From IMG/VR virus record IMGVR_UViG_3300042472_000628, positions 101,455 to 165,454 of that record: 64,000 bases of DNA; one strand, written 5' to 3'. This document shows, in pieces, positions 5,713 through 33,984 of this stretch. How positions within the stretch are numbered: the stretch's first letter is position 1; every line of letters starts with the position of its first letter. A program made the translations under genes and the position numbers. The DNA is from a virus (lineage: Duplodnaviria; Heunggongvirae; Uroviricota; Caudoviricetes). Under the pieces are notes generated by a model, which did not search any database, was not told where the DNA came from, and saw only the letters and a list, made by a program, of their open reading frames with translations.

Positions 5713-5720
5713 AGAAAAGC

Positions 5721-6399: not shown

Positions 6400-6403
6400 A
6401 TTT

Positions 6404-6475
6404 GCTGCCATCGTCTAACGGTTAGGACATTAGGTTTTCATCCTAAAAATCGGAGTTCGATTCTCCGTGGCAGTA
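6404..6475 (+). tRNA. tRNA-Glu (TTC)
   Basis: Acceptor gctgcca/tggcagt; anticodon stem ttagg/cctaa with loop ttttcat; T loop GGAGTTCGATTCTCC. Confidence 0.65.
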
Positions 6476-6588
6476 CGAATGCTAATGTATATGGTCAATA
6501 CATTAAATGTGATATAACAGACCCGTAAAAAAATGAAGCAATCACGGAAGGAAAGTTTTCGCAAACCTGCTTACACTTTGGATCGTAA

Positions 6589-6672
6589 AGTGATTTGGGA
6601 TTATAGTACAATAGGATAGTATAAAGCGACAGTAGTTGCGACAACATGGGTTCGAGTCCCATTATTTCCACA
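6589..6672 (+). other. tRNA-like element with canonical T arm (atgggttcgagtcccat), cloverleaf unresolved
   Basis: T loop and plausible acceptor (gggatta/tatttcc, 1 mismatch) but D and anticodon arms could not be folded by eye. Confidence 0.25.
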
Positions 6673-7083
6673 AACAATTATTTCTTACCAATATGTCAAA
6701 TTGACTTATTTTTAAAATAAATTAGAAAAAAACACATAAATTGTGAAACTTTTAAAAAGTTAATGATATATACTATAATAATACAAAAAACAACAACGAT
6801 GAAACGCAACAACTTACATATAAAATATTGTCTACAGATGATTAGCTGGATATTTAATCCGGGGGTTAATCATGGGCGTGTCTTATCTATAAGTTGATAG
6901 TATAATTATTTCAACATTTAGTTAAACCAAGCCCATCAAAAAGCTTGGTTTTTTTTTGTTTAAAATTTTAAAACGTTTGGTTGGCCGATCGGTTAGGCGC
7001 AGGATTGCAAACTCTGTAAGGTTGGTTCGATTCCAACACTAAACTCAGAACAAAGAGTTCTTTGACATCTTGGTGAAAACGAT

Positions 7084-7156
7084 GGAGCAGTGGCAGATGA
7101 GGTCATTGCGCTGGACTGAAAATCCAGAGGAGTTGGATCGATACCAACCTGCTCCA
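7084..7156 (+). tRNA. tRNA-Phe (GAA)
   Basis: Acceptor ggagcag/ctgctcc; anticodon stem ctgga/tccag with loop ctgaaaa; non-canonical T loop atcgata. Confidence 0.65.
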
Positions 7157-7162
7157 CAATAT

Positions 7163-7233
7163 TGTCCTTTGGTCTAATGGCAGGACACCTGGTTTTGATC
7201 CAGGCGGTCGAGGTTCGAATCCTCGAGGGACAA
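7163..7233 (+). tRNA. tRNA-Gln (TTG)
   Basis: Acceptor tgtcctt/agggaca; anticodon stem cctgg/ccagg with loop ttttgat; T loop GAGGTTCGAATCCTC. Confidence 0.65.
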
Positions 7234-7239
7234 CAACTA

Positions 7240-7315
7240 CGGAAGGTATAGGAGTCAGGTTTATCTAGCTCGCCTTGGACGCGAGATCACGTGGGTTCGA
7301 ATCCCACTCTTCCGA
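7240..7315 (+). tRNA. tRNA-Pro (TGG)
   Basis: Acceptor cggaagg/tcttccg; anticodon stem ctcgc/gcgag with loop cttggac; T loop GTGGGTTCGAATCCCAC. Confidence 0.65.
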
Positions 7316-7323
7316 CTTTTAAA

Positions 7324-7402
7324 TTGTTCGTAACTTTTGAAAAATAATTACGAAAACTGTTTCCAGATTAAAAAACTTTGTGTATATTTACATATAATTA
7401 AT
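7324..7402 (+). promoter_or_regulatory. conserved intergenic cassette 3, located inside the tRNA array (TTGTTCGTAACTTTTG ... TGTATATTTACATATAATTAATAA)
   Basis: Same motif as the protein-gene cassettes; followed by a TTGACAT-TTGG motif and tRNA-Gly. Confidence 0.55.
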
Positions 7403-7439
7403 AACAAAAGCTCTTTGACATGTTGGAAATAACAAATAA

Positions 7440-7511
7440 GCAGATGTCGTATAATGGTCATTACTCCAGACTTCCAATCTGGAGATGAGAGTTCGATTCT
7501 CTCCATCTGCT
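7440..7511 (+). tRNA. tRNA-Gly (TCC)
   Basis: Acceptor gcagatg/catctgc (perfect); anticodon stem ccaga/tctgg with loop cttccaa; T loop GAGAGTTCGATTCTCTC. Confidence 0.7.
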
Positions 7512-7519
7512 CACAGATA

Positions 7520-8110
7520 AGACTGTTATTAATTCATAGAGCTACATATTGCGATCATAGAATTAAAGGTGTTGGCTTCAAGGACGCTAGTAGGGAAGTA
7601 CACTTAAATAAAACGTGCAACGGGGAAAGTGTCGACTTAAGAAACGGCAAGTACCAACGAAGCGTGTGGTATCCATCAAACGCCTCCACGTGGCGATACT
7701 GGAAATTAGTTATGGAACTTGCGCAAGGAAAGCAACTAAAACCAAGTTTGAAAAAGCATAGGTAACTGAAAAATGTGGTTCGAGTCCACACCCGTAATAG
7801 CCAAAGGGTTGAAGCATTGAGGTTGATGCATAAGTTATAACAGAGCTGCAGCTCTAGGATAGGTCTGGTTAAAGTAGGCAGTGCCAATACAAAAGGTTCG
7901 AATCCTTTCTATCCACAAATACATGAGCTTTGAAGCACAAGTGGACGTGCAACCGGTAAAAGGCCGGATTAGGTTATAGGTTCGAATCCTATCTCTGCTC
8001 CAAATGATTATGAGGCCATTGGTTGGCGGCACCTCACAAAGGTTGAGTTGAAATATACTCTTTATTGTAAAGCTGGAATTGGTTCGAATCCAATCATAAT
8101 TACAAAGAAG
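7520..8110 (+). other. block of at least four tRNA-like elements with canonical GGTTCGA(A/G)TCC T loops (near 7777, 7897, 7978, 8071) whose 5' halves do not fold into standard cloverleaves
   Basis: T-loop consensus matches; acceptor partners found for some (e.g. gattatg/cataatt spanning 8006-8101, about 95 nt) but D/anticodon arms unresolved. Confidence 0.3.
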
Positions 8111-8200
8111 ATGCCTGATCAGCAATATCTTCCTAACGATTAAGATTACATATAGCTTAAAGAAATTTGTCGACACTAATTTCTGTAATTTTAATTGATT

Positions 8201-8276
8201 GCTTTACGTAGTTTAACTTGGTTTGGAACGCGGGCACTGAGCCCGAAGAGTATGGGTTCGAATCCCATGTAAAGAC
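8201..8276 (+). tRNA. tRNA, anticodon uncertain (possibly CTG, Gln)
   Basis: Acceptor gctttac/gtaaaga (1 mismatch); stem cggg/cccg with loop cactgag; T loop ATGGGTTCGAATCCCAT. Confidence 0.4.
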
Positions 8277-8283
8277 ACTATAT

Positions 8284-8355
8284 TGCGGGGTAGAGCAGAG
8301 GTAGCTCAGCGGGCTCATAACCCGAAGGTCGCAGGTTCGAATCCTGCCCCCGCTA
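8284..8355 (+). tRNA. initiator tRNA-fMet (CAT)
   Basis: Anticodon loop ctcataa flanked by GGG/CCC in the anticodon stem (initiator hallmark); unpaired 1-72 position; D arm gagc/gctc; T loop GCAGGTTCGAATCCTGC. Confidence 0.65.
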
Positions 8356-8408
8356 CAAATCTTAAGAAGTAATTAATCTTAAGACTGAATGGTTCGAAAC
8401 ATTCGGAA

Positions 8409-8499
8409 TGATTATGGTGTATGGTGCACAGTAGAAGTTAGTAAGCACATAGTGACTGAGGGCGGACACAGGATTAAGGTTCAAATCCTTATTAATCAG
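8409..8499 (+). tRNA. class II (long variable arm) tRNA-like, anticodon unresolved
   Basis: Acceptor tgattat/ttaatca (6 of 7 bp), T loop AAGGTTCAAATCCTT, length about 91 nt. Confidence 0.3.
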
Positions 8500-8505
8500 C
8501 AAAAT

Positions 8506-8579
8506 TCCTCAGTAGCTCAGTTGGTTAGAGCACCTGACTGTTAATCAGGGGGTCGTAAGTTCGAGTCTTACCTGGGGAG
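8506..8579 (+). tRNA. tRNA-Asn (GTT)
   Basis: Acceptor tcctcag/ctgggga; D arm tagctcagttggttagagca; anticodon stem cctga/tcagg with loop ctgttaa. Confidence 0.75.
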
Positions 8580-8645
8580 CTAACTACCAAAATTGAATGA
8601 TACGAGCCTCCAAAGTTCGAAAGGAGTCAGGTGGTAGTTAAATTT

Positions 8646-8726
8646 GGGAGTGTTGAGCAACGGTTGCTTAGCAGACTGTAAATCTGTGGCCTTACGGCAT
8701 TGGGGGTTCGAATCCCTCCACTCCCA
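8646..8726 (+). tRNA. tRNA-Tyr (GTA), class II
   Basis: Acceptor gggagtg/cactccc; anticodon loop ctgtaaa; long variable arm ggccttacggcat; T loop GGGGGTTCGAATCCCTC. Confidence 0.65.
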
Positions 8727-8735
8727 CTATAATAT

Positions 8736-8806
8736 ACATGTGTGGTGCAATGGTAGCATGACGGTCTCCAAAACCGTTGATGGGAGTTCGAATCTCTCCA
8801 CTTGTG
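8736..8806 (+). tRNA. tRNA-Trp (CCA)
   Basis: Anticodon stem acggt/accgt with loop ctccaaa; D stem gtgc/gcat; acceptor acatgtg/cacttgt has one internal mismatch. Confidence 0.55.
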
Positions 8807-9002
8807 CAAATAATAAGTTGATATGCTGTGAAAACCGAAATGAGCGCAAGTTGAGGTTAGGTGGGTTCGAATCCTGTTCAATAATTCCTATGTGGTGGAG
8901 CCAAGTAACAGATAACATATCATAGCCGATTTGGGTTGTGCACCTCGTCCGAGAAGCCCTAATAGTTCCTAATAGTTCGGTATGGAACAACTTATTATTA
9001 AT

Positions 9003-9076
9003 GGACTTGTAGCTCAGTTGGTTAGAGCACCGCACTCATAATGCGTAGGTCGTTGGTTCGAGTCCAGCCTGGTCCA
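9003..9076 (+). tRNA. tRNA with CAT anticodon (elongator Met or Ile2/lysidine type)
   Basis: D arm tagctcagttggttagagca; anticodon loop ctcataa without the GGG/CCC initiator signature. Confidence 0.6.
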
Positions 9077-9139
9077 CAGAATATGGAACAACATCGATCC
9101 CGTAATGCCATGGCTCGTGCACGAGTAACGGGATGCAAT

Positions 9140-9211
9140 AGTCGATTAGTTCAACGGATAGAACACTGAGCTACGGACTCAGGAATAAGGGTTCGAATCC
9201 TTTATTGACTA
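9140..9211 (+). tRNA. tRNA-Arg (ACG)
   Basis: Acceptor agtcgat/attgact; D stem gttc/gaac; anticodon stem ctgag/ctcag with loop ctacgga. Confidence 0.7.
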
Positions 9212-9220
9212 CAAATATAT

Positions 9221-9294
9221 TGCGGGTTAAAGTTCTGGTGAACTTATCGGTCTCATAAGCCGAATGAAGGGTAGTTCGATTCTGCCACCCGCTA
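9221..9294 (+). tRNA. tRNA with CAT anticodon (second non-initiator copy; Met or Ile2)
   Basis: Anticodon stem tcggt/gccga with loop ctcataa; T loop GGTAGTTCGATTCTGCC; acceptor gcgggt/acccgc. Confidence 0.5.
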
Positions 9295-9300
9295 CTAAAT

Positions 9301-9374
9301 TGCGATATGGTAGAGTTGGTTTCTTACGATGCTCTCATAAGGCATAGACTCTGGTTCGAGTCCAGATATCGCAA
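9301..9374 (+). tRNA. tRNA with CAT anticodon (third CAT species)
   Basis: Perfect acceptor tgcgata/tatcgca; anticodon stem atgct/ggcat with loop ctcataa; T loop TCTGGTTCGAGTCCAGA. Confidence 0.55.
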
Positions 9375-9379
9375 CACAT

Positions 9380-9507
9380 GATTGTACTTGTGCAGGGAAG
9401 CACAGCCCACCGGTAAATTGGGTGCCTTTTAGGCTAGGTTAATTTAAAGATGATGAAGTATCGATCAAGTAATCATCAGGGTTCGAGTCCTCTTACAATC
9501 ACGAAGA
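9380..9507 (+). ncRNA. about 128-nt tRNA-like RNA (perfect 7-bp acceptor gattgta/tacaatc + T-loop-like cagggttcgagtcct) with about 55 extra nt of internal hairpins
   Basis: Acceptor pairing and T loop seen directly; internal hairpins tgtgc-agggaa-gcaca and cacc-ggtaaattg-ggtg; may be an intron-containing tRNA or a stable small RNA. Confidence 0.35.
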
Positions 9508-9532
9508 GAAAAGCGAATAGTAATAATATTAG

Positions 9533-9604
9533 CGGCGATTAGTGGAGTGGTGACCACGCTGGCTATAGGGGCCGGAGAAGCAAGTTCGATTCTTGTATTG
9601 TCGT
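9533..9604 (+). tRNA. tRNA, anticodon uncertain (loop tataggg gives TAG, but no long variable arm and A33)
   Basis: Acceptor cggcgat/attgtcg (2 GU); D stem gtgg/ccac; T loop GCAAGTTCGATTCTTGT. Confidence 0.4.
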
Positions 9605-9795
9605 TATAAAATACTGGCCGCAATAAAATAAACCGGAAGTGTAGTAACGTGACAGATACTTAAGTTGCAAATAAAGTATTTGGTGTAGTTAAGTCTTACG
9701 TGGATTCGCGGTCTTAGGTAAGATGTTTATTTTATACTCTTTTTAAAAGTTTTTAGGGTGGTTCTGGTTCTTCAAAAACGCTATCACCTCCACCA

Positions 9796-9869
9796 GACTT
9801 CGTAGCTCAGTTGGTTAGAGCATCGCACTTTTAATGCGAGGGCCGATGGTTCGAGTCCATCCGGGGTCA
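9796..9869 (+). tRNA. tRNA-Lys (TTT)
   Basis: D arm tagctcagttggttagagca; anticodon stem tcgca/tgcga with loop cttttaa; T loop GATGGTTCGAGTCCATC. Confidence 0.75.
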
Positions 9870-10034
9870 CAATAAACTAAAAATTGTTACAATAAACTAA
9901 TAAGGTTTATTGATACAAAAAGAAGTTTACTGAATATGCTTCACTCATAATACTGCGATCTCTCAGTTAAAAGCTGTCGTAGAGTAAAGTTATAGTCCAA
10001 TATGGCTATAGGTTATGGTAAAGTGAAGCTCCAC

Positions 10035-10109
10035 GCTTTCTTAGCTCAGTTGGTTCAGAGCGCCTCGTTTACACCGAGGAGGTCACAGGTTCGAACCCTG
10101 TAGAAAGTA
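10035..10109 (+). tRNA. tRNA-Val (TAC)
   Basis: D arm tagctcagttggttcagagcg; anticodon stem cctcg/cgagg with loop tttacac; T loop ACAGGTTCGAACCCTGT. Confidence 0.75.
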
Positions 10110-10180
10110 CGACGGTGCACAAAGGGTACATGTCCTGGTCAGAGATTTATTCTCGCAAACTCGATACCTTAAGTTGAGCT

Positions 10181-10204
10181 GCCGATCTACGGGATCGGCT
10201 TTAT
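10181..10204 (+). terminator. hairpin gccgatc-tacgg-gatcggc followed by TTTAT (terminator or processing site inside the tRNA array)
   Basis: Perfect 7-bp inverted repeat directly 5' of tRNA-Leu(TAG). Confidence 0.4.
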
Positions 10205-10284
10205 GCCTGGGTGGTGGAATTGGTAGACACGGCGGTCTTAGAAACCGTGGCGAAAGCTTGAGAGTTCGAGTCTCTCCCTGGGTA
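10205..10284 (+). tRNA. tRNA-Leu (TAG), class II
   Basis: D region tg-gtg-gaattggtaga-cac matches the E. coli tRNA-Leu D loop; anticodon stem gcggt/accgt with loop cttagaa; variable arm ggcgaaagctt. Confidence 0.65.
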
Positions 10285-10287
10285 CTA

Positions 10288-10345
10288 GTGTTCATTATAA
10301 ATGAATGTTCATTGCCAATGAACACATGAAAATAATGAACATATA
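10288..10345 (+). promoter_or_regulatory. array of four 9-bp TGTTCATT/AATGAACA motifs in alternating orientation (two overlapping inverted-repeat pairs)
   Basis: gtgttcatt(10288) .. atgttcatt(10304) .. aatgaacac(10318) .. aatgaacat(10335); candidate operator or RNA structure between tRNA-Leu and tRNA-His. Confidence 0.4.
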
Positions 10346-10348
10346 CAT

Positions 10349-10422
10349 GGTGGTTATAGTGTTAGCGGTTAGCACGTCAGTTTGTGGTACTGATAGCATG
10401 GGTTCGAATCCCATTAATCACC
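10349..10422 (+). tRNA. tRNA-His (GTG) with encoded G-1
   Basis: Anticodon stem tcagt/actga (perfect) with loop ttgtggt; acceptor gtggtta/taatcac preceded by an extra G; T loop ATGGGTTCGAATCCCAT. Confidence 0.65.
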
Positions 10423-10429
10423 CAAAATT

Positions 10430-10514
10430 GGAAGATTGTCAGAGTGGTCTATTGTGCAACTTTGCTAAAGTTGTGGACTTCACGGTCCCGAAGGTTCGAA
10501 TCCTTCATCTTCCG
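10430..10514 (+). tRNA. tRNA-Ser (GCT), class II
   Basis: Perfect acceptor ggaagat/atcttcc; anticodon stem caact/agttg with loop ttgctaa; variable-arm hairpin tggacttcacggtccc; T loop GAAGGTTCGAATCCTTC. Confidence 0.75.
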
Positions 10515-10599
10515 CAAAAAATGAAACTTTTTTAATTGATCAAGTATAATTATCAAATAACAAAGTTCTTTAAAATATTAAAGGTTTCTTACAGCAATT

Positions 10600-10725
10600 A
10601 AAAAGCAATCAGAACCGGTACATTGTAGGTTCGAGTCCTACCTCCTCAACAAATTAACTATGAAAAATTGAGGAGTGGTGAAATTGGTAAACACACTGGT
10701 AAGCAAAAACAGAAACCTGACCATA
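10600..10725 (+). other. apparently permuted tRNA: T arm + 3' acceptor strand (gtaggttcgagtcctac-ctcctca, ending about 10648) lies UPSTREAM of its complementary 5' acceptor + D arm (tgaggag-tg-gtg-aaattggtaaa-cac, from about 10669)
   Basis: Exact complementarity ctcctca/tgaggag seen in sequence; halves are in reversed order on the same strand. Confidence 0.3.
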
Positions 10726-10914
10726 TTGGAATACATACAGCAAATTTACAAACTTTGACTTTTACTCAAACAAACTGTATTCCGTATTTTTAAAATATAA
10801 AGGATGCTTCCAGCAAATTTAAAAACTTTTATTGGAAAAAGCAAATCAGCATCCTGTTATTTTATTCATTTAACTAGCCAGCTTTATTAGATACATATAT
10901 AAATATTACAACAA

Positions 10915-11607
10915 ATGAAAACACATATAATTTATCTAAAGGGCAATGAATTCTCAGAGACCATGGTAAAAGATACCATAAAGTCTTTGAACAAATTCGA
11001 TATCGACTATGAATTATTTGATGGAGTTGTAGGCAGAAAAGGCATTGAAGTTTTAAAATCTTATAATGCAAAACCCTCAGCATATGTTAATATGGAAGAT
11101 TGGACCGATGGTACTATCGGTTGTTTAGCAAGTCATTATTTATTATGGGACGAGTGCTCTAAACAAGATCAACCTTTTTTAATTCTTGAACAAGATGCTG
11201 TTTTAGTTAGAGATCCTAGAGAAATACTACACTTAATAGAAAATGCATGTCATTTAGATGCATATTTACCCTTTAATAATTCAGGTGCTGTTACAGAACA
11301 TGAACACTTTAAAGCTTATAATGATGCTATCAAACTTTATACTAGTGGAGTTAAAAAACACCCTATTAGTAAATTTTATGGAGATAAGTCTGTAACTGGA
11401 AGCACTTTTAGAGGCGCATATGGATATATAATAACACCCAAAGGTGCCCAAGAAATCTTAAATTTTATAAATAAAAAAGGTATATTTCCAGCAGATGCAT
11501 GTTTATGTGAAAATGCTACAGATATTCAAAGATCAAATAGTACATACGTTAGATTAAATCCATTTTTCGAAACATTGGACTTACAAAGAAAATTTTCATC
11601 AAGATAA
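10915..11607 (+). CDS. glycosyltransferase family 25 (LOS/LPS beta-glycosyltransferase-like)
   Basis: GTIGCLASHYLLWDE motif and overall layout typical of GT25 (Lic2B/LgtB-like). Confidence 0.55.
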   Translation: MKTHIIYLKGNEFSETMVKDTIKSLNKFDIDYELFDGVVGRKGIEVLKSYNAKPSAYVNMEDWTDGTIGCLASHYLLWDECSKQDQPFLILEQDAVLVRDPREILHLIENACHLDAYLPFNNSGAVTEHEHFKAYNDAIKLYTSGVKKHPISKFYGDKSVTGSTFRGAYGYIITPKGAQEILNFINKKGIFPADACLCENATDIQRSNSTYVRLNPFFETLDLQRKFSSR

Positions 11608-11611
11608 CCAT

Positions 11612-11685
11612 AGTCATTTAGCTCAGTTGGTTAGAGCGCCTCGCTGATACCGAGGAGGTCGTAAGTTCGAGTCTTACATTGACTA
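11612..11685 (+). tRNA. tRNA-Ile (GAT)
   Basis: D arm tagctcagttggttagagcg; anticodon stem cctcg/cgagg with loop ctgatac; T loop GTAAGTTCGAGTCTTAC. Confidence 0.7.
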
Positions 11686-11689
11686 CATA

Positions 11690-21775: not shown

Positions 21776-21780
21776 TATAT

Positions 21781-26161: not shown

Positions 26162-26180
26162 TAAAATAATCACACATATA

Positions 26181-26226
26181 TTTTTTTATGTCAAAACTTT
26201 TTGGTATATTTACATATAATTAAAAA
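26181..26226 (+). promoter_or_regulatory. conserved promoter cassette 7 (T7-ATGTCAAAAC ... GGTATATTTACATATAATTAAAAA)
   Basis: Motif instance. Confidence 0.55.
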
Positions 26227-26236
26227 CAACTTAAAG

Positions 26237-27133
26237 ATGATAACATTAGACTTAGTTAATCCAGAAAAATCAGACATTAAATACAAAATTAGTCAATTTC
26301 CAGATGGTCAACAAACAGTAGACCTTATTGATTGGAATGACTTAATGATATATGAAGATGCTGTAAAAATCAGTTCACGTTTAAATAGTTTTAAGGACTT
26401 AGAATTAATTATTTGTGCAACAGCAGCAATCAGAAATATTAAACCAAATCGAGAAATCGCACTTTACGTTCCATACTTCATGGGAGCTCGTTCAGATCGT
26501 AAATTTGTTGACGGTGGTGTTAACTATTTGAAACAAGTTATTTGTCCAATCATTAACTCTTTAAACTTCATAACAGTAATTACATTGGATCCACATTCAG
26601 ATGTTTTAGAAGCATGTTTAAATAACTATGAGAAAACAGATAATCATACAGTAGTTAAATATGCACTTACAGATATTGATAATAAGAGAGATGCTCAAGA
26701 AAGAATTTGTTTAGTAAGCCCAGATGCTGGTGCATACAAGAAAATCTTTGATGTTGCTAAGAAGTTTCAAATCCAAAATATTGTTACGGCAAACAAAGTT
26801 AGAGATATGAGAACTGGTAACATTCTTAAAACAGAAGTACCAAACTTACCAGGATCTATCGGAGACCCTAACTCAGTTAATGATGATATGAAATATGTAA
26901 TCATTGATGATATTTGTGATGGTGGTAGAACTTTTATTGAATTAGCTAAAGCTATTAAAGCAAGCAGACCAAGTGCTAAAATTTATTTAGTAGTTACTCA
27001 TGGAATATTTAGTGCTGGTTTTACAGAGCTAAACAAATATTTCGAACGTATTTACACAACAAATTCTCATAGAGATATTGCTGATAATGAATATGATGTA
27101 AAAACAAACACAACTGCATTTAAAGTAATATAA
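26237..27133 (+). CDS. ribose-phosphate pyrophosphokinase (PRPP synthetase) family protein; candidate ADP-ribose pyrophosphokinase of an NAD+ reconstitution pathway
   Basis: PRPP-binding loop VIIDDICDGGRTF, VSPDAGAYKK, overall Prs layout; start set at ATG 26237 (track start 26201 lies in the promoter). Confidence 0.6.
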   Translation: MITLDLVNPEKSDIKYKISQFPDGQQTVDLIDWNDLMIYEDAVKISSRLNSFKDLELIICATAAIRNIKPNREIALYVPYFMGARSDRKFVDGGVNYLKQVICPIINSLNFITVITLDPHSDVLEACLNNYEKTDNHTVVKYALTDIDNKRDAQERICLVSPDAGAYKKIFDVAKKFQIQNIVTANKVRDMRTGNILKTEVPNLPGSIGDPNSVNDDMKYVIIDDICDGGRTFIELAKAIKASRPSAKIYLVVTHGIFSAGFTELNKYFERIYTTNSHRDIADNEYDVKTNTTAFKVI

Positions 27134-27348
27134 TGTATACAATAGATTCTTTATTTACACAGCATGGTTACGTTATAGAAATAGAAGTAGACCGTACAAG
27201 TGCTCCAAAGTTTGCATTTGACATATACAAATATGAACACTTTGGTAACTATGAAAAAATTGAAGTAAGAGATTGGTATTTATACAGAACATGGCAAGAA
27301 GCATTCGATGCTGCCATTGAAGAACTAACACAATTAAATTTAATATAA
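27133..27348 (+). CDS. hypothetical protein
   Basis: ORF track. Confidence 0.4.
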   Translation: MYTIDSLFTQHGYVIEIEVDRTSAPKFAFDIYKYEHFGNYEKIEVRDWYLYRTWQEAFDAAIEELTQLNLI

Positions 27349-27349
27349 G

Positions 27350-27484
27350 ATGGCTAAAAAAGCAAAAGCAGTAGAAAAGCAAGTACAAGAAGTTATTGTA
27401 CTAGTACACGATCCAATCTTAGGTTCAAGATATGAATTAAGAGAAGTTGAAGTAGAAGAATCTGAAAACGAGGAAGCAGAGTAA
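27350..27484 (+). CDS. small acidic hypothetical protein (44 aa)
   Basis: Hand translation MAKKAKAVEKQVQEVIVLVHDPILGSRYELREVEVEESENEEAE. Confidence 0.3.
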   Translation: MAKKAKAVEKQVQEVIVLVHDPILGSRYELREVEVEESENEEAE

Positions 27485-27981
27485 TGGAATCTATTTACAA
27501 TAGAGAATATCGAATGTATGGATTGGTGCCTTATAATTTAAGCCCAATCCAACAAGGTATCCAATTTGGACATGCTGTTGTAGAATATGGACTTGACTTC
27601 TTTAATACTCCAGAATACCAAGAATGGGCGAAAATAGACAAAACATTTATTATTTTAAATGGTGGAACTACTAATGACAGTAGCATGAGATTAGGAACTC
27701 TTCAGCAAAACTATTTTGAATTAACAGATCGAGGTATTAAAGTTGGAGAATTTCATGAGCCAGATTTGGGTGATCAAATGACAGCTGTAGTTTTCTTAGT
27801 TGATGACAGAGCATTTGACAAAACCCACTGGCCTGATTATGTTGGTCCATATTATATAGATGGTACAACACCAATCGAAATGGATTATTATGAATGGAAG
27901 ATGAAATTTGCTGAAACAGAAAAGGAAGCAGATCAGATCATTTTCTTAAGAGAATTTTTAAAACGATTTAGACTAGCATAA
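27484..27981 (+). CDS. hypothetical protein; weak resemblance to peptidyl-tRNA hydrolase PTH2 family
   Basis: SPIQQGIQFGHAVVEYG resembles the PTH2 s-x-G-K-i-a-A-Q-x-x-H-A motif; tentative. Confidence 0.3.
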   Translation: MESIYNREYRMYGLVPYNLSPIQQGIQFGHAVVEYGLDFFNTPEYQEWAKIDKTFIILNGGTTNDSSMRLGTLQQNYFELTDRGIKVGEFHEPDLGDQMTAVVFLVDDRAFDKTHWPDYVGPYYIDGTTPIEMDYYEWKMKFAETEKEADQIIFLREFLKRFRLA

Positions 27982-28544
27982 TGGGAGAATTAAACAAATT
28001 TATGAAATCGATGATAGATGTTGATACAAATTATCAAGAAATAGAAGGTGATTTAATTGCACTAGCAAAACAGGGAAAGTTTGATGTAATTACACATGGT
28101 TGTAATTGCTTGTCAAATATGGGAGCTGGAATAGCACCGCAAATGGCAAAAGCGTTTGGAGTTGACCGTTTTGAAATGGAAACTTGGGGAGCAACCATTG
28201 AAAAGCTCGGATGTATCGATTGGCAAACATTCGTCATTGGTCAAAATACAATCTGGTCTTTAGAAGACGCCGATAATAAAAGGAATGAACCTGAATTATC
28301 AGTTGTAAATTCATACACTCAATTCAGATATGGTAAGAATCATACCGATGGAGTTTCAAAACCTTTAGATTATGAGGCATTAACTCTTTGTATGCGTAAG
28401 ATCAATTTTCAATTTGAAGGTAAACATATTGGATTGCCAAAGATTGGAGCAGGATTAGCAGGTGGAGATTGGAATAGAATTAAAAGGATTATTCAAACAG
28501 AATTAAAAGACATGAAAGTGTCGGTAGTAATTTATAAACCATAA
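27981..28544 (+). CDS. macro domain (ADP-ribose binding/processing) protein
   Basis: DVITHGCNCLSNMGAGIAPQMAKAFG and GLPKIGAGLAGGDW blocks align to the macrodomain N-A-A-N...G-G-G-V..A-I and P-x-I-S-t-G-x-y-G motifs. Confidence 0.5.
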   Translation: MGELNKFMKSMIDVDTNYQEIEGDLIALAKQGKFDVITHGCNCLSNMGAGIAPQMAKAFGVDRFEMETWGATIEKLGCIDWQTFVIGQNTIWSLEDADNKRNEPELSVVNSYTQFRYGKNHTDGVSKPLDYEALTLCMRKINFQFEGKHIGLPKIGAGLAGGDWNRIKRIIQTELKDMKVSVVIYKP

Positions 28545-28547
28545 GAA

Positions 28548-28757
28548 ATGAAAGATTTAATAGAAGCGCTAATCATATTAGCTAAATACATGGATCCTGA
28601 ACAAAAATGGCCTACTCATTGCGAACATGATGTTCTTTATGTTTGTCACATTGACGAAGAAGATGTATCCGAAGAGGACACGAAAAGATTAGATGAATTA
28701 GGATTTCATCCAAGCGAAGAAGGCGGATTTCAATCTTATAGATTCGGTAGTTGTTAA
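28548..28757 (+). CDS. hypothetical protein
   Basis: ORF track. Confidence 0.4.
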   Translation: MKDLIEALIILAKYMDPEQKWPTHCEHDVLYVCHIDEEDVSEEDTKRLDELGFHPSEEGGFQSYRFGSC

Positions 28758-29245
28758 ATAAGATGAAGGTTATTTTTCTAGATTTTGACGGTGTATTAAA
28801 TGTAATTCCTCAAGGACATGATGATTTCGGTGGAATATTCCATCCTGAATTTGTAGAAAATCTAGGTAGAATCATTGATGAAACCGGAGCAAAATTAGTT
28901 ATTAGTTCTTCATGGAGACACATGGGATTGGAAAGACTACATAGAATGTGGAAACAACGTCAATATCCTGGAGAAATAATTGGAATTACACCAGATCTTA
29001 GATGGAACCATGATTTAGAAGGTGGCCCAGAAATGGTTCGTGGAGATGAAATACAGTCAATTCTCGATAGACAACCTGAAATAACTAATTACGTTATTCT
29101 TGATGATGACACGGATATGTTAAAGAGTCAACGAATGAACTTTGTACAAACATCGACCAATATTAATCATCCAGATTGTATCGATATTGGTTATGGATTA
29201 ACTAAAGAATGCACAAATAGAGCAATAAGAATTTTAAACAAATAG
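28751..29245 (+). CDS. HAD-superfamily phosphatase
   Basis: Motif I FLDFDGVL, motif II ISSSW, motif IV ILDDD. Confidence 0.55.
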   Translation: MLNKMKVIFLDFDGVLNVIPQGHDDFGGIFHPEFVENLGRIIDETGAKLVISSSWRHMGLERLHRMWKQRQYPGEIIGITPDLRWNHDLEGGPEMVRGDEIQSILDRQPEITNYVILDDDTDMLKSQRMNFVQTSTNINHPDCIDIGYGLTKECTNRAIRILNK

Positions 29246-29248
29246 AAT

Positions 29249-29461
29249 ATGTCACAATCTTCACCAGAAGGAATAATTTTAGGAAAAGGTTCTAAATTAG
29301 TTTCATTTAAAGCTTCAATTGATAATGAAGTAGTTGTTAATATAGAAAAGGACAATGCTTTAGAAAAAGCCATTTCATTATTAAAACAAACAACCGAATA
29401 TGAAGTTTTAGAAAGTTTCAGAGAAAAGGTAAAAAATCTTGAACAATTTAAAAACAAATAA
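29249..29461 (+). CDS. hypothetical protein
   Basis: ORF track. Confidence 0.4.
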   Translation: MSQSSPEGIILGKGSKLVSFKASIDNEVVVNIEKDNALEKAISLLKQTTEYEVLESFREKVKNLEQFKNK

Positions 29462-29951
29462 TATGAAAGTAACAGATAAACATGTATTTTTCTGGAATGG
29501 AATTTACTCACAATGGCATAAAGCTCCAATGACAATTGACAAGATTGAATATAATTCATGTGAACAATATATGATGCATCAAAAGGCATTATTATTTGGA
29601 GATGATATTGTAGCAAGTTTGATTATGGAGGAAACGAATCCAAGAGAGCAAAAGAAATATGGTAGACAAATCCAAAACTTTGATAAAGCAACTTGGGATA
29701 AAAATTGTTTGGCAATTGTTTATGAAGGAAACTTGGCAAAATTCAGACAAAATGCTGGATTAAGAGAAGAAATGTTAAATACTGGTGATCGTATCTTTGT
29801 AGAGGCTTCTCCATTAGATAATATTTGGGGAATTGGTCTTGATGAAAATGCCGAAGGAATTGATGATCCATCATATTGGTTAGGTTTAAATCTTTTAGGA
29901 CAAGCATTAACTCTTGTAAAAAATCAATTAAGAAATGAGACAATCAGGTAA
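29439..29951 (+). CDS. NADAR (YbiA-like, DUF1768) domain protein
   Basis: FFWNGIYSQWH ... SCEQYMMHQKALLFGD ... NLAKFRQN ... NTGDRIFVEASPLDNIWGIG follows the NADAR family pattern. Confidence 0.55.
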   Translation: MNNLKTNNMKVTDKHVFFWNGIYSQWHKAPMTIDKIEYNSCEQYMMHQKALLFGDDIVASLIMEETNPREQKKYGRQIQNFDKATWDKNCLAIVYEGNLAKFRQNAGLREEMLNTGDRIFVEASPLDNIWGIGLDENAEGIDDPSYWLGLNLLGQALTLVKNQLRNETIR

Positions 29952-30219
29952 AACTACAAGATTAGTAGATGCTGCAGTTCAATATTTATTTGAACATGGA
30001 TATATTAAAATTTTAACAAACTTTGAAATATTCAATCAAAAATTCATGAGAGGTTATAGACCAGAGCAAGTTGATATGTTTTTAAGATTTATCGATCCAG
30101 ATACTAGACCAGACAATAGAGCACAACAGTATTTTATTGAAGCATTAGATAGAAGACTTGCAACTGAACACGGAGGAAGCACTGAAAGAATTAGTAGAAC
30201 AGAATTTAAAGTAATTTAA
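29935..30219 (+). CDS. hypothetical protein
   Basis: ORF track. Confidence 0.4.
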   Translation: MRQSGKTTRLVDAAVQYLFEHGYIKILTNFEIFNQKFMRGYRPEQVDMFLRFIDPDTRPDNRAQQYFIEALDRRLATEHGGSTERISRTEFKVI

Positions 30220-30371
30220 TATGAAAAGATTAGTAGAATTATTAGCACCATCATATTTAGGATTTGCTCTATCAGCATTTGCAAATATCAGCTGGTACCA
30301 ATGGGAATTTTATGCAATTATAGTTCCATTTTATATTTTAGTAAAAATAACGGATTTTAATAAAGACGAAG

Positions 30372-30947
30372 ATGAGTAGAACAGAATTTCATACCGGAAA
30401 ATTATATCCAGTCAAAATTGAGAAAAGTTTAGAAGAGACTTGTAGAAGTATTGCAAAACGATTTGATGTTGAATTAGGCGAGGATTGGCAAGAAGATTTT
30501 ATGGATGCTTTTGACGAGTACTCTAATAAAAGAAACAGTCAAAAGGAAGAGTATTTTATCTATGGAGAGAAACTTTATAGAGTTATCGATCATGTAGAAT
30601 CTGAAGATTCAGAATACTTTATGAATGTTACTAGAAATAGCGACGGAAGCCTTTCATTTATGGGACAATTCTATAATGGTGGTACATGCTTCTCTGAAAT
30701 GTTAGAAGAGTCTTTGGATAGATTGAAACCAACCTTTGTTGAACAAATCAAAATTGAAGTTGATAAAATTATCGAAGAGCATGGAGAAAAGATGCCTATA
30801 ACAGTTCCATCTGCAGCAACACTAATCATGAAATATCATGGTATTGAAAGAGCAAGAGAATTATTTGCCGGAGCTTCTAGAGAAACTGAAGGGGATCCAT
30901 TTAAACATTCGGCATATCAAGCAACTTTGCAAATCACTTTAAAATAG
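30372..30947 (+). CDS. hypothetical protein
   Basis: ORF track. Confidence 0.4.
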   Translation: MSRTEFHTGKLYPVKIEKSLEETCRSIAKRFDVELGEDWQEDFMDAFDEYSNKRNSQKEEYFIYGEKLYRVIDHVESEDSEYFMNVTRNSDGSLSFMGQFYNGGTCFSEMLEESLDRLKPTFVEQIKIEVDKIIEEHGEKMPITVPSAATLIMKYHGIERARELFAGASRETEGDPFKHSAYQATLQITLK

Positions 30948-31024
30948 TGAAACAAAATAAAAGTATTTAATATAATACTTATAACCAGCATCCAACTAAC
31001 GACGGTTGCACAATAACATATATT

Positions 31025-31870
31025 ATGAAAAACGATGCATTAGGCGATCGCATGAAAGAGTTCTACGAAGATAGAACTAGAATCAAACTCCCAAGGAGAA
31101 CATTTACAATTATCCGTATTGACGGAAAAGCCTTTCACACCTATACGAAAGGATTAGAGAGACCATTTGACCAAGGACTTATTGAAGACATGAATGCAAC
31201 TACTGCATATTTATGTAAAAACATTCAAGGTGCTAAATTTGGTTATGTACAATCAGATGAGATTAGTTTAGTTCTAACAGACTTTGATGACCTAGGAACT
31301 CACGCTTGGTTTGACAACAACCTACAAAAAATGGTATCAGTTGCTGCTTCTATGGCCACTGCAGAATTCAATAAACTTAGGTTAATGAGATACATGAAAA
31401 ATAGCATGATCTTTTTAGAACCGGAACATATTGAAAAATTCAAAATGGCTGAATTCGACGCAAGAGCATTTCAAATTCCATTTATTGATGAGGTAGAAAA
31501 CTATTTTATCTGGAGACAACAAGACGCTGTAAGAAATTCAATTTCTTCAGTTGCTCAAAGTCTTTATAGTACTAAAGAATTACATGGTAAAAAAACAAGT
31601 GACATGCAAGAATTGATCTTCCAAAAAGGAATCAATTGGAATGACTATGATTTTCGTCTAAAACGAGGTGCAGTAATTGCAAAGGTGGAAGTTCCAGTAC
31701 TTGTAAAAACCAAAGAGTTTATTAATGATGGTGAAACACATGTAATAGACCCTACTCAAATTGTAATGAGAAACAAATGGCAAGTTGTAGAAACTCCAAC
31801 ATTTACACAAGACAGATGGTTCATTAAAGGATTAATAAACCCAACTAAAAACATAGACAATGATAATTAG
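31025..31870 (+). CDS. Thg1-like protein (tRNA-His guanylyltransferase family; 3'-5' polymerase / tRNA 5'-end repair)
   Basis: N-terminal RMKEFYEDRTRIKLPRRTFTIIRIDGKAFH...RPFD...FGYVQSDEISLV parallels Thg1 FEYVRxFE...IVVRIDGKKFH...KPND...GESDEYSF. Confidence 0.6.
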   Translation: MKNDALGDRMKEFYEDRTRIKLPRRTFTIIRIDGKAFHTYTKGLERPFDQGLIEDMNATTAYLCKNIQGAKFGYVQSDEISLVLTDFDDLGTHAWFDNNLQKMVSVAASMATAEFNKLRLMRYMKNSMIFLEPEHIEKFKMAEFDARAFQIPFIDEVENYFIWRQQDAVRNSISSVAQSLYSTKELHGKKTSDMQELIFQKGINWNDYDFRLKRGAVIAKVEVPVLVKTKEFINDGETHVIDPTQIVMRNKWQVVETPTFTQDRWFIKGLINPTKNIDNDN

Positions 31871-32318
31871 AGAACAAATAAATGCAGACTTTATAACTGC
31901 AATGAAAGCAAAAGACGAAGTAGCCAAAATGGCACTTAATAGTATTAAAGCAGCAATCACGAATGCTGAAAAGGGAAATGGAACTTGGGTTGCAACGAAT
32001 GAAGAGGTTATTAAAATAATTAATAAAGGAATCAAGCAACGTGAGGAATCCATTAAAATGTATGATTTGGCAAATAGACCAGAATTGTCTAAAAAAGAAT
32101 CAGAAGAGTGTGCAATCTTAAGAAGATATATGCCAGCACAAATGGAACCTCAAGAAATTGTAGATGCTCTTACAGAAATTATGCAAGAATTTAGTGGAAT
32201 AGTTACAAATCCACAAGCATTACAAGGTAAAACTATTGGCGAATTTAACAAAAGATACCAAGGTCGTGCAGAAATCGGTATAGTTAAGAGTGTTTTAGCA
32301 AATCTTGTAGATTGTTAA
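31860..32318 (+). CDS. GatB/YqeY-domain protein
   Basis: Full-length match to the YqeY pattern (AMKAKD..., IKQREESIKMY, ILRRYMPAQM, GKTIGEFNKRYQGRAE). Confidence 0.55.
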   Translation: MIIREQINADFITAMKAKDEVAKMALNSIKAAITNAEKGNGTWVATNEEVIKIINKGIKQREESIKMYDLANRPELSKKESEECAILRRYMPAQMEPQEIVDALTEIMQEFSGIVTNPQALQGKTIGEFNKRYQGRAEIGIVKSVLANLVDC

Positions 32319-32324: not shown

Positions 32325-32394
32325 TTTTAAAATAAATCACCTGATATTTTTTTATGTCAGGTTTTTTATGTATATTTACTCTATAATTAAAAAC
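32325..32394 (+). promoter_or_regulatory. conserved cassette 8 (degenerate TTGTTAATAACTTTTTT; hairpin acctga-T7AT-gtcaggt + T6; ATGTATATTTACTCTATAATTAAAA)
   Basis: Motif instance upstream of the NAMPT-like gene. Confidence 0.6.
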
Positions 32395-32403
32395 AATTAA
32401 TAT

Positions 32404-33984
32404 ATGAACCCATTATTTTTAACAGACGGTTACAAAACAGGACATCACCAACAATATCCAAAAGGAACAACGTTGGTTTATTCAAACTTCACACCTAGAA
32501 GTAATAAGTATGCTCCTAAAGGATGCGACCAATTAGTATCATTTGGACAACAAATGGTAATCAAACAAATTCACGAAGCATTTGACAAAGATTTCTTTAG
32601 CAAACCTAAAGATGAAGTTTGCGGCGAAATGAAACGTGAATTGTCAATGTACTTAAATACTGACTATGATGTTAGTCACTTTGAAGCATTACATGATTTA
32701 GGTTATTTACCAATCGTGGTAAAAACAATCGAAGAAGGTTCTTTAGTACCAATGAGAGTTCCTGTATTGACAATTTACAATACACATCCAGATTTCTATT
32801 GGATTACAAACTACTTAGAAACAATTATTTCTAACTTGTTATGGAAACCAATGACTTCAGCAACTATTGCACATGCTTACCGTAAATTATTTACATCATG
32901 GCAAGAAAAAACCGATGCTGAAAAAGGTTGGTTCGTAGATTGGCAAGCACATGATTTTTCAATGAGAGGTTTAGATTCTATTGATGCAACTATTAGTTCA
33001 GGATTGGGTCACTTAACAAGTTTCTCAGGTTCAGACAGTTTACCAGCAATCTTTGGAGCTCGTAAATTCTATGGAGAAACTGGATTTGTTGCTGGATCTG
33101 TGAATGCAACTGAACACTCAGTTATGTGTGCTGGATCTAAAGAAGATGAGGTTGGAACATTTAGAAACTTGATGGAAACATATCCAACAGGAATTCTTTC
33201 AATCGTATCAGATACTTGGGACTTATGGAAAGTTTGTACTGAACATATTGTTACCTTGAAAGAAGAGATTTTAGCTCGTGATGGTAAGGTAGTTATTAGA
33301 CCCGACTCTGGTGATCCAGTAGATATTATTTGCGGCGCAAGTGTTATTAAAACAAACGCGCACCATGATAATGATGTGGTTGCTTACTTAGGTGGAGTAG
33401 CAGAAGTTAATCCTACCGATGAATATTTAAACAAACCAGAAGTAAAAGGAGTTATTGAATTACTTTGGGATGTATTCGGTGGAACTATCAATGAACAAGG
33501 TTACAAAGTTCTTGATTCTCATATTGGAGCAATCTACGGAGATTCAATAACGTTAGATCGTGCAGAACAAATCTTTACAAGATTAGAAGCAAAAGGTTTC
33601 GCAAGTACAAATATTGTATTAGGCGTTGGAAGTTTTACATACCAATATAACACTAGAGATACTTTTGGTTTTGCAATGAAAGCAACTTATGTTGAAGTTA
33701 AAGAACATTTTAGAACTGTTAAAGACGAGAATGGTAACTATACACATTCAGAAGAAATCATCACAGGTCGTGAAATCTTTAAAGATCCAATCACTGATGA
33801 CGGTATTAAGAAATCTGCAAAAGGTTTATTAAGAGTTGCCGGAGACGAAACATGTTTCTTATTAGAAGATCAATGTACTTGGGAAAATGAAGCCACTGGT
33901 AAATTAAAAACTATCTATAAAGATGGCCAATTCGAAAACCAAACTACACTAACAGAAATTCGTGAACGTTTAACTAATTCATAA
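32404..33984 (+). CDS. nadV: nicotinamide phosphoribosyltransferase family protein (NadV/NAMPT-like); candidate nicotinamide ADP-ribose transferase if paired with an ADPR pyrophosphokinase
   Basis: N-terminus MNPLFLTDGYKTGHHQQYP and length 526 aa are diagnostic of the NAMPT family. Confidence 0.7.
   Translation: MNPLFLTDGYKTGHHQQYPKGTTLVYSNFTPRSNKYAPKGCDQLVSFGQQMVIKQIHEAFDKDFFSKPKDEVCGEMKRELSMYLNTDYDVSHFEALHDLGYLPIVVKTIEEGSLVPMRVPVLTIYNTHPDFYWITNYLETIISNLLWKPMTSATIAHAYRKLFTSWQEKTDAEKGWFVDWQAHDFSMRGLDSIDATISSGLGHLTSFSGSDSLPAIFGARKFYGETGFVAGSVNATEHSVMCAGSKEDEVGTFRNLMETYPTGILSIVSDTWDLWKVCTEHIVTLKEEILARDGKVVIRPDSGDPVDIICGASVIKTNAHHDNDVVAYLGGVAEVNPTDEYLNKPEVKGVIELLWDVFGGTINEQGYKVLDSHIGAIYGDSITLDRAEQIFTRLEAKGFASTNIVLGVGSFTYQYNTRDTFGFAMKATYVEVKEHFRTVKDENGNYTHSEEIITGREIFKDPITDDGIKKSAKGLLRVAGDETCFLLEDQCTWENEATGKLKTIYKDGQFENQTTLTEIRERLTNS

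Follow-up and report, generated by a model that had tools for sequence, protein, structure and literature searches.

The window analyzed here is a 64,000-nt stretch of the Caudoviricetes record IMGVR_UViG_3300042472_000628 from IMG/VR, and contains a gene for a Thg1-like protein (TLP) embedded in a compact series of accessory genes (Table 1). From the candidate ADP-ribose pyrophosphokinase gene, Adps (start at 26237), to the gene for a YqeY protein (end at 32318) there are 14 open reading frames (ORFs) that overlap or are separated by at most 5 nt, with the exception of a 77-nt gap before the TLP gene; the nicotinamide ADP-ribose transferase gene, Namat, follows. An earlier note, made from the sequence alone, described positions 27484-32318 as tRNA-repair-type genes co-located with an NAD module. 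The TLP and YqeY genes agree with this description, but about half of the span corresponds to ADP-ribose/NAD chemistry, and the genes for a Macro-domain protein, a HAD_SAK_2 phosphatase and a NADAR protein, which are also situated there, had been overlooked. Likewise, the NAD module is indeed co-located with the tRNA-related genes, although by its gene content it corresponds to a NARP1-AP system and not to an ordinary salvage pathway.

The locus was compared with two sets of 80 IMG/VR loci each and with 13 GenBank records. The first set was centered on homologs of the TLP (47-94% identity; many of the contigs are 100-430 kb), and the second one, comprising loci L093-L172 from 23 lineages, on the family of the PTH2-fold protein described below. 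For lineage counts, the TLPs were clustered at 70% identity, resulting in 37 clusters, and neighbors were scored within 8 kb. Public gene calls of an identical contig agree with the ORF map used here and provided the start of Adps.

Table 1. Features of the Adps-Namat locus and of the rest of the window.
Feature	Position	Strand	Evidence or remarks
RNase T-like exonuclease	985-1665	+	adjoins tRNA array
Guanylate kinase	2033-2506	+	accessory gene
25 tRNA genes	5053..11686	+	putative TLP substrates; about 20 kb 5′ of TLP
Class-I glutamine amidotransferase/peptidase C26	19392-19979	+	accessory gene
Cassette copy	26180..26230	+	hairpin 3′ half ATTTTTTTATGTCA then GTATATTTACATATAATTAAAAACA; about 32 nt 5′ of Adps start codon
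PRPS-like protein, candidate Adps (ADP-ribose pyrophosphokinase of NARP1)	26237..27133	+	PHROG 619, 6.5e-67
Two small ORFs (71 and 44 aa)	27133..27484	+	71-aa ORF kept beside Adps in 7 related loci
PTH2-fold protein (165 aa)	27484..27981	+	predicted structure; C-terminal extension of ~55 aa; 1-nt overlap with Macro start
Macro-domain protein, Adpp-like (ADP-ribose-1″-phosphate phosphatase type)	27981..28544	+	PHROG 335 "phosphatase", 3e-43
69-aa ORF, function unassigned	28548..28757	+	
HAD_SAK_2 phosphatase	28763..29245	+	PF18143, 2.5e-27, 96.3 bits (cut-off 27.5)
70-aa ORF, function unassigned	29249..29461	+	
NADAR domain protein	29463..29951	+	PF08719, 9.8e-49, 166.2 bits (cut-off 35.1); TIGR02464, 9.6e-42
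Two small ORFs (94 and 52 aa)	29935..30379	+	52-aa ORF kept in 10 related loci
191-aa protein	30372..30947	+	PHROG 6035
TLP (281 aa)	31025..31870	+	Pfam, PHROG and PDB sequence matches
YqeY/GatB-tail-like protein	31860..32318	+	PF09424; solved YqeY chains
Terminator-like hairpin with T-run (32339-32362) merged with cassette copy	32339..32395	+	about 33 nt 5′ of Namat
Namat (nicotinamide ADP-ribose transferase of NARP1)	32404..33984	+	elsewhere annotated NAMPT
Nucleoside 2-deoxyribosyltransferase-like protein	34243-34719	+	PF15891, 1.4e-35; 3′ of Namat in 14-18 related loci
Metallophosphoesterase, calcineurin-like	35575-36282	+	after Namat; syntenic in many relatives
tRNA-Ala (26th tRNA gene)	40704-40778		
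SPFH/Band 7 protein	42759-43688	+	accessory gene
M42 aminopeptidase	46273-47364	+	accessory gene

Organization of the putative transcription unit

A cassette of about 50 nt, consisting of a hairpin 3′ arm, ATTTTTTTATGTCA, followed by GTATATTTAC..TATAATTAAAAACA, occurs on the plus strand at 3672-3721, 4110-4159, 7383-7410, 21779-21828, 26180-26230, 32346-32395 and 41988-42040, with four matches to its 26-nt core against 0.01 expected by chance. It lies 32-33 nt 5′ of the start codons of Adps and Namat and is not found between 26240 and 32340. Other copies are situated about 32 nt 5′ of the start codons of the ORF at 3729 and of a gene for a sigma-70-family factor with regions 2 and 4 (4175-4789, plus strand), itself just 5′ of the tRNA array, and 5′ of a tRNA-Gly gene within the array. 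Besides the terminator-like hairpin that merges with the cassette copy before Namat, there is a second one at 35017-35040. The motif TAnnTTTA of the cassette is close to the Bacteroidota -7 box, and the cassette is probably a terminator-promoter module that delimits transcription units. A scan for E. coli-type promoters found 60 in the window, not above the 69.6 expected by chance, the consensus being probably unsuited to the host. We infer that the genes from Adps to YqeY form one transcription unit of 14 ORFs, because they are tightly packed, are flanked by cassettes with none inside, and are followed by a hairpin with a T-run after YqeY; the next unit would then begin with Namat.

The proteins of the unit and the tRNA genes

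The product of the TLP gene matches the Pfam Thg1 family (PF04446) with an E-value of 2e-29 (102.6 bits, cut-off 29.2) and, weakly, Thg1C, as well as PHROG 4717 (3.5e-86). Among solved structures, residues 4-220 match the TLP from Bacillus thuringiensis (BtTLP, 4KGK; 1.2e-59, 205 bits), whereas those of yeast, Candida and human Thg1 reach only 28-53 bits. The Thg1-like identity put forward in the earlier note is thus borne out, and the loss of metal-binding carboxylates that it had contemplated has not occurred: in the alignment, residues D30, D75 and E76 of BtTLP correspond to D33, D78 and E79. Similarly, the nucleotide-binding residues E12, R28 and H35 of BtTLP correspond to E15, R31 and H38, while the ATP-positioning K43 is conservatively replaced by R46, and M158 by Ser; the roles of the three carboxylates, which hold two metal ions, and of E12, R28, H35 and K43 are described by Hyde et al. 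(2013; PMC3701042). The aligned position of the HINNLYN motif of Candida Thg1 is occupied by RNSISS. Based on the match to BtTLP, the weak scores with eukaryotic Thg1, the three carboxylates and the lack of HINNLYN, the protein can be assigned to the bacterial-type TLPs, with an intact active site. According to published accounts of Thg1/TLP chemistry, ATP or GTP activates the 5′-monophosphate, through an A-pp-RNA intermediate, and nucleotides are then added 3′-to-5′ in a templated manner. For BtTLP, a kobs of 0.91 per min on a 5′-truncated tRNA has been reported, versus 0.0007-0.046 per min on full-length tRNA-His (PMC3701042).

We infer that the substrates of the TLP are tRNAs, of which the window encodes a large set of 26, in agreement with the earlier note. 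This set includes, as also stated there, a tRNA-His (10350-10423) with a genomic G-1: a G at 10349 precedes G1 and the discriminator is a C (10422), so that the G-1:C73 pair is encoded. None of the other tRNA genes in the window has a G at -1, which is a T in 18 of the remaining 25. Bacterial G-1 of tRNA-His is retained by RNase P. The nucleotide is also encoded in seven of the nine tRNA-His genes found near other phage TLPs and, therefore, its addition is not needed for maturation; for this reason, a role of the TLP as G-1 supplier was demoted. It could still be that the TLP is devoted exclusively to the upkeep of tRNA-His, restoring on phage or host molecules a G-1 lost in processing, without any general repair. 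The encoded G-1:C73 tRNA-His would be a suitable template for a bacterial-type TLP, and several TLP loci have tRNA-His in flanking arrays, starting in L026 only 21 nt after the TLP stop codon. Nevertheless, we consider this explanation unlikely, given that G-1 is encoded in eight of the ten cases (the window and seven of the nine others), that BtTLP acts on truncated tRNA much faster than on full-length tRNA-His, that the window TLP does not have the motif typical of eukaryotic Thg1, and that other phages have general RNA-repair enzymes beside their TLP.

The acceptor stems were also inspected for defects that a TLP could correct. Positions 1 and 72 are mismatched in two of the 26 tRNAs, tRNA-Gln(CUG) at 8201 (G1.A72) and tRNA-Met at 8284 (U1.U72), and form a G.U pair in four; across related loci, four out of 151 tRNAs have a mismatch. 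Initiator tRNAs normally carry a mismatch at 1:72. These figures might be taken as a sign of programmed editing, in which mismatched 5′ ends would be removed and the TLP would then rebuild them, as happens in the mitochondria of protists. However, the great majority of the acceptor stems pair normally, a mismatch is to be expected in the initiator tRNA, and no 5′ exonuclease partner was identified beside the TLP gene, making this a very unlikely explanation; as the main role of the TLP it was rejected, since only two of the 26 tRNAs have the mismatch. CCA is encoded in none of the 26 genes, 13 of them having N73-CAA and almost all the others a C after N73, so a CCA-adding enzyme must finish these tRNAs. 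Pfam searches of 50 window ORFs, and tblastn with representative sequences taken from related loci, did not identify a CCA-adding enzyme, an RNA ligase, a polynucleotide kinase, RlaP, PARP or NMNAT.

The YqeY/GatB-domain protein that had been noticed next to the TLP is clearly recognizable, with matches to PF09424 (4.7e-31, 108.2 bits, cut-off 27) and to the solved YqeY chains 8XJE (5e-14) and 1NG6 (2e-10). Its ATG lies within the TLP gene, the two genes overlapping by 11 nt, and this overlap is repeated in loci L003, L004 and L015. In Deinococcus GlnRS, a YqeY domain is reported to make the binding of tRNA stronger (PMC1865053). This, together with its similarity to the GatB tail and its predicted translational coupling to the TLP, suggests that YqeY is probably a tRNA-binding helper.

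The product of the ORF at 27484-27981 had been proposed as a possible PTH2, which is supported by its predicted fold and not by its sequence. Neither Pfam (E up to 0.1) nor NCBIfam gave a match, and searches of PDB sequences (E up to 10) with phmmer and with a profile of 34 sequences were also negative, so that no sequence-level link to the PTH2 family (PF01981) was obtained. However, the top 13 PDB matches retrieved by Foldseek with its AlphaFold2 model (pLDDT 89.6) are all PTH2 (2ZV3, 3ERJ, 1Q7S, 1XTY), with a probability of 1.0 for the top eleven, whose target-normalized TM values are 0.57-0.66 over about 100 residues, and of 0.77 at rank 13. The family comprises 3112 metagenomic homologs, without a Pfam model, and its invariant residues include Q23, Q27, H30, D94, D97 and T100. 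The modeled structure thus points to a PTH2-fold protein that is not a member of the PTH2 family. Contrary to what had been stated, the gene is not adjacent to that of the TLP: it is actually 3 kb upstream, with eight ORFs in between. The protein would probably hydrolyze an ester at the 3′ end of tRNA, such as a peptidyl, N-acyl-aminoacyl or similar adduct.

The HAD_SAK_2 ORF has motif I DxDxV, as FLDFDGV, near its N-terminus, as well as an acidic DDD motif, and did not match any solved structure. The phosphatase domain of T4 Pnkp is also of the HAD type. An annotation table of a Vibrio jumbo phage includes one polynucleotide kinase ORF with both a HAD_SAK domain and a match to T4 Pnkp (5UJ0). 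The HAD_SAK phosphatase of the window probably takes blocking phosphates off RNA ends.

The remaining identifiable genes belong to ADP-ribose and NAD chemistry. The PRPS-like protein shows weak matches to true Prs (2e-12) and 29% identity over 205 aa to Adps from Bacillus phage FADO, and is a candidate Adps by family and genomic context. The Macro-domain protein scores 17.1 bits with Pfam Macro, below the 22-bit threshold, although it matches BT1257 (1e-9) and Poa1p (6LFU, 4e-4) in the PDB and has homologs in 2448 phage records; by analogy, it is a candidate Adpp, and its place between Adps and Namat fits the NARP1-AP system. Namat is 49% identical to that of FADO and reaches 485 bits with the Namat of SpbetaL1 (9W5X/9W5W, identified as such in PMC12774641), versus about 175 bits with canonical NAMPT. 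NARP1 rebuilds NAD+ from ADP-ribose and nicotinamide, and in NARP1-AP the Macro phosphatase (Adpp) lets it overcome RES-type defences. No NMNAT turned up in the window ORFs that were scanned, which fits NARP1 rather than the NMN route. The sequence matches and the gene context suggest that the module is a NARP1-AP (Adps, Adpp, Namat), a known counter-defence, and not a classical salvage pathway. It is not arranged as a compact Adps-Namat operon: a hairpin and a separate cassette copy precede Namat, and the 13 ORFs between Adps and Namat are the Macro gene and 12 others, including those of TLP, YqeY, HAD_SAK, NADAR and the PTH2-fold protein. The nucleoside 2-deoxyribosyltransferase-like and metallophosphoesterase genes after Namat may be further parts of this NAD/ADP-ribose island. 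The NADAR family consists of ADP-ribosyl-nucleobase glycohydrolases, the class of the phage orphan antitoxin AdfN, and stand-alone phage NADAR genes are known counter-defences against DarT1.

Related loci, other phages and the rest of the window

Relatives whose TLP shares at least about 60% identity have the island too, though rearranged and with some genes lost; the gene order is Adps, PTH2-fold, Macro, (HAD_SAK), NADAR, 191-aa protein, TLP, YqeY, Namat and deoxyribosyltransferase-like. The gene for the 191-aa protein of PHROG 6035 is 5′ of TLP within 75-240 nt in three loci, and within about 4 kb in eleven more. Outside this lineage, the NAD genes are mostly gone and RNA-related neighbors appear. 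Thus, HAD_SAK immediately precedes TLP (gap of 0-325 nt) in L021-L023 and L025 and is no more than 4 kb away from it in several other loci; an RNA ligase (PF09414, from a Pfam search of L029 only) is directly 5′ of TLP in L029, and BLASTP clustering placed the same family 5′ of TLP in L043 and L054. Among named phages, there is a polynucleotide kinase gene 0.6 kb 3′ of TLP in Mycobacterium phage DmpstrDiver, an RlaP "RNA repair pathway" nucleotidyltransferase gene 3 kb 3′ in Erwinia jumbo phage pEa_SNUABM_50, and an RNA ligase gene 4 kb away in Xanthomonas phage XacN1; no Pfam match was obtained for the upstream neighbors of TLP in Bcp1, XacN1, FNU2, pEa_SNUABM_50, FADO and P018-4. The TLP gene is within tRNA arrays in L026, L036, L041 and L048, and tRNA genes occur within 8 kb in 12 of the 52 TLP loci scanned. 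By lineage, HAD_SAK neighbors TLP in 7 of the 37 clusters, Adps and NADAR in 5 each, the PTH2-fold gene and YqeY in 4 each, Macro in 3 and Namat in 2.

The PTH2-fold gene, for its part, has near it an RNA ligase (17 loci, 4 lineages), RlaP (7 loci, 3 lineages), a PolyA_pol/CCA-type nucleotidyltransferase (6 loci, 4 lineages), NADAR (6 loci, 5 lineages), Adps and Macro (each in 26 loci, 3 lineages), and a PARP-domain protein (22 loci, 3 lineages). The neighbors of both families across lineages thus support a role in RNA/tRNA repair, and suggest that they belong to a recurring RNA-end repair guild which, in some lineages, is interleaved with NAD/ADP-ribose genes. As a separate observation, the PARP catalytic domain protein, of about 434 aa (PF00644, 2e-26; L140:983-2287), lies at most 3 kb from the PTH2-fold gene in those 22 loci; by its domain, it is a predicted phage ADP-ribosyltransferase in an RNA-repair neighborhood.

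FADO belongs to the phages whose NARP1 has been validated through gene deletion, and its TLP gene (gp072) lies on the same strand as Adps-Namat (gp078-077), 2.2 kb 3′ of them. The link between TLP and NARP1 is therefore real in the window lineage and in FADO, and is limited to certain lineages. Probably, it reflects a shared deployment, in the same unit and probably with the same timing, and not a single biochemical pathway. A direct connection with NAD can be envisaged if the adenylylation of 5′-phosphates by the TLP, producing a 5′-5′ pyrophosphate, were exerted on a substrate other than tRNA, as in RNA capping or uncapping, or on ADP-ribosylated 5′-phosphates. The A-pp-RNA intermediate described in the published accounts, the position of the TLP gene between Adps/Adpp and Namat, its proximity to NARP1 in FADO and the lack of NMNAT among the window ORFs tested are all compatible with such a chemistry. 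Yet NARP1 does not require an extra adenylyltransferase, most phage TLPs have tRNA or RNA-repair genes nearby and not NAD genes, and the window TLP is 48% identical to ordinary Bacillus-phage TLPs, with a standard active site; this leaves the idea as most improbable.

Another possibility is that the locus is a hotspot for accessory genes, where tRNA and NAD genes work separately, without any shared pathway or cooperation of TLP, YqeY, HAD_SAK and the PTH2-fold protein. Relatives show a shuffled gene order and, among nearly identical contigs, L084 and L086 lack HAD_SAK, NADAR and a full-length gene for the PHROG 6035 protein, while keeping those for PTH2-fold, Macro, TLP, YqeY and Namat. Additionally, no gene is universal as a neighbor of TLP, NARP1 genes are within 8 kb in just 2-5 of the 37 TLP lineages, and the TLPs of BSP38, Eldridge and Bcp1 have no NARP1 nearby. 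A mere hotspot, however, does not account well for the recurrence of RNA-repair families beside TLP and PTH2-fold genes in unrelated lineages, the stop-start overlaps of TLP with YqeY and of the PTH2-fold gene with Macro, the absence of internal cassette copies, or the closeness of NARP1 and TLP also in the unrelated phage FADO. We regard the hotspot as possible, without favoring it.

Homologs of the TLP are present in at least 164 GenBank phage records, almost all of them with genomes of about 85-635 kb, among which are Lak megaphages, XacN1, phiCbK-like phages, Eneladusvirus, Omegavirus and Herelleviridae; most are already annotated as "tRNA-His guanylyltransferase". Several TLP-bearing phages are tRNA-rich. 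Phages that infect alphaproteobacteria (Caulobacter, Brevundimonas, Sinorhizobium, Agrobacterium) also often encode a TLP. The tRNA-His of these hosts is not known to carry G-1 and, if it lacks this nucleotide, this would argue against a G-1 role of the TLP there.

The window as a whole is phage-like, with a low GC content of about 31-33% and nearly all genes on the plus strand. The only long ORF on the minus strand (11735-14365, 876 aa) coincides with a patch of negative GC skew and has no PHROG match. Identical proteins are encoded on metagenomic contigs whose length reaches 165-255 kb, and no nearly identical DNA was found in GenBank phages, the sole match being of 52 nt in prs genes. Shine-Dalgarno motifs precede only two of 62 plus-strand starts, versus a background of 10%, and the upstream regions are A-rich. 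The best match of the Macro gene among GenBank phages is from Cellulophaga phage phi17:2 (48% identity). The scarcity of Shine-Dalgarno motifs and this match make a Bacteroidota-like host likely.

Interpretation and comparison with known systems

In our preferred interpretation, to which we assign a probability of roughly one half, the segment at 27484-32318 is the middle and end of a tightly packed accessory unit in the genome of a large phage, and this unit mixes two guilds, one for NAD+/ADP-ribose and another for tRNA ends. In the first guild, Adps, the Adpp-like Macro protein and Namat would rebuild NAD+ from ADP-ribose, or ADP-ribose-1″-phosphate, and nicotinamide after an NAD-depleting immune response, and NADAR would strip ADP-ribose from nucleic-acid bases. 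In the second one, the TLP would use ATP or GTP to activate the 5′-monophosphate of tRNAs shortened at their 5′ end, and would then add nucleotides 3′-to-5′ with the 3′ strand of the acceptor stem as template, including G-1 opposite C73; this guild would keep the 26 phage tRNAs, as well as host tRNAs, usable during infection. A counter-defence role for the tRNA-related genes is plausible from their content and context.

Several observations weigh against this interpretation. The acceptor stems in the window are mostly well paired and G-1 is encoded, so there is no evident built-in need for a TLP, and a full RNA-repair pathway is not visible in the window, where no ligase, kinase domain of a polynucleotide kinase, CCA-adding enzyme or RlaP was found. 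The PTH2-fold protein has no link to PTH2 at the sequence level, and its catalysis is a prediction from the modeled fold. The cassette is read as a promoter by comparison with Bacteroidota promoters, and relatives do not clearly retain the terminator that follows YqeY. Proximity of TLP to NARP1 is absent in most of the 37 TLP lineages, Bcp1, BSP38 and Eldridge being examples, and the losses in L084 and L086 imply that the parts of the unit are separable. Our literature search found no characterization of a phage TLP. Lastly, the defences in a recent list of tRNA-targeting systems cleave the anticodon loop or, in the case of MenT and CapRel, modify the acceptor stem, and other papers describe cleavage of the T-loop and of the 3′ tail, but 5′ truncation is mentioned in none of them.

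A stronger proposal is that of a tRNA-rescue system, composed of TLP, YqeY, HAD_SAK and the PTH2-fold protein and co-expressed with NARP1-AP and NADAR in one counter-defence unit with several purposes, which would reverse immune damage to the acceptor end. The lesions reversed would be 5′ truncations, 3′ phosphates or pyrophosphates, and N-acylated aminoacyl esters. We regard this proposal as doubtful; if true, a bacterial-type TLP would have a demonstrated biological role for the first time, and there should be a still undiscovered class of defences that attack tRNA 5′ ends.

Part of what we describe is already known: every component family, the routinely annotated phage TLPs, and the published NARP1, NARP1-AP and phage NADAR counter-defences. 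The new elements are a NARP1-AP whose Adps and Namat genes are split by 13 ORFs, including TLP-YqeY, HAD_SAK, NADAR and PTH2-fold, and an abundant phage family with a predicted PTH2 fold and no Pfam model, consistently found beside RNA-repair and ADP-ribose genes. The placing of phage TLPs in an RNA-repair guild across lineages may also be new, although some of the associations may already be described by Burroughs and Aravind (2016). The in vivo role of bacterial-type TLPs has been open since repair of truncated tRNAs was observed in vitro, and phages offer a clean genetic handle for it; FADO, in particular, is a tractable phage with a TLP beside a validated NARP1. Should the tRNA-related genes prove to be a counter-defence, phage tRNA repair would extend beyond Pnkp and Rnl1 of T4, and this would point to defences that damage the 5′ end of tRNA.

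The repair of tRNA by T4 Pnkp and Rnl1 against the anticodon nuclease PrrC is the precedent for phage tRNA repair as a counter-defence. In T4, the broken anticodon loop is healed and sealed, whereas a TLP rebuilds missing 5′ nucleotides; moreover, unlike in T4, neither a ligase nor a kinase was found in the window, although TLPs of other lineages adjoin a polynucleotide kinase or an RNA ligase. The best solved relative of the window TLP is BtTLP (4KGK/4KGM), with which it has in common the three carboxylates and the equivalents of E12, R28 and H35. It differs from BtTLP in its length (281 vs. 245 aa), with an insertion of ~13 residues near 125-137 and a longer C-terminus, and in being encoded by a phage gene coupled to that of YqeY. 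The TLPs of protist mitochondria belong to the same family and have the same templated 3′-5′ repair chemistry, but act on genomically mismatched 5′ ends, whereas the window tRNAs are mostly well paired. The protein encoded at 27484-27981 shares its predicted fold with PTH2 (MJ0051, AF2095, human Bit1/PTRH2 and Sulfolobus Pth2), from which it differs by an identity of only 11-20% and by an extra helical C-terminal extension of about 55 aa. As with AdfN and the NADAR of DarT-NADAR systems, the window NADAR, assigned by family only, stands alone in a phage accessory region. Finally, the NARP1 and NARP1-AP systems of Bas63, SpbetaL1, FADO and Vibrio phage Gary share with this locus a PRPS-like protein, Namat and a Poa1p-like Macro protein. 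However, the canonical system is an operon of two or three genes, whereas 5.3 kb separate Adps from Namat in this locus; the system of the window is, therefore, functionally NARP1-like, as judged from its gene content, and architecturally expanded.

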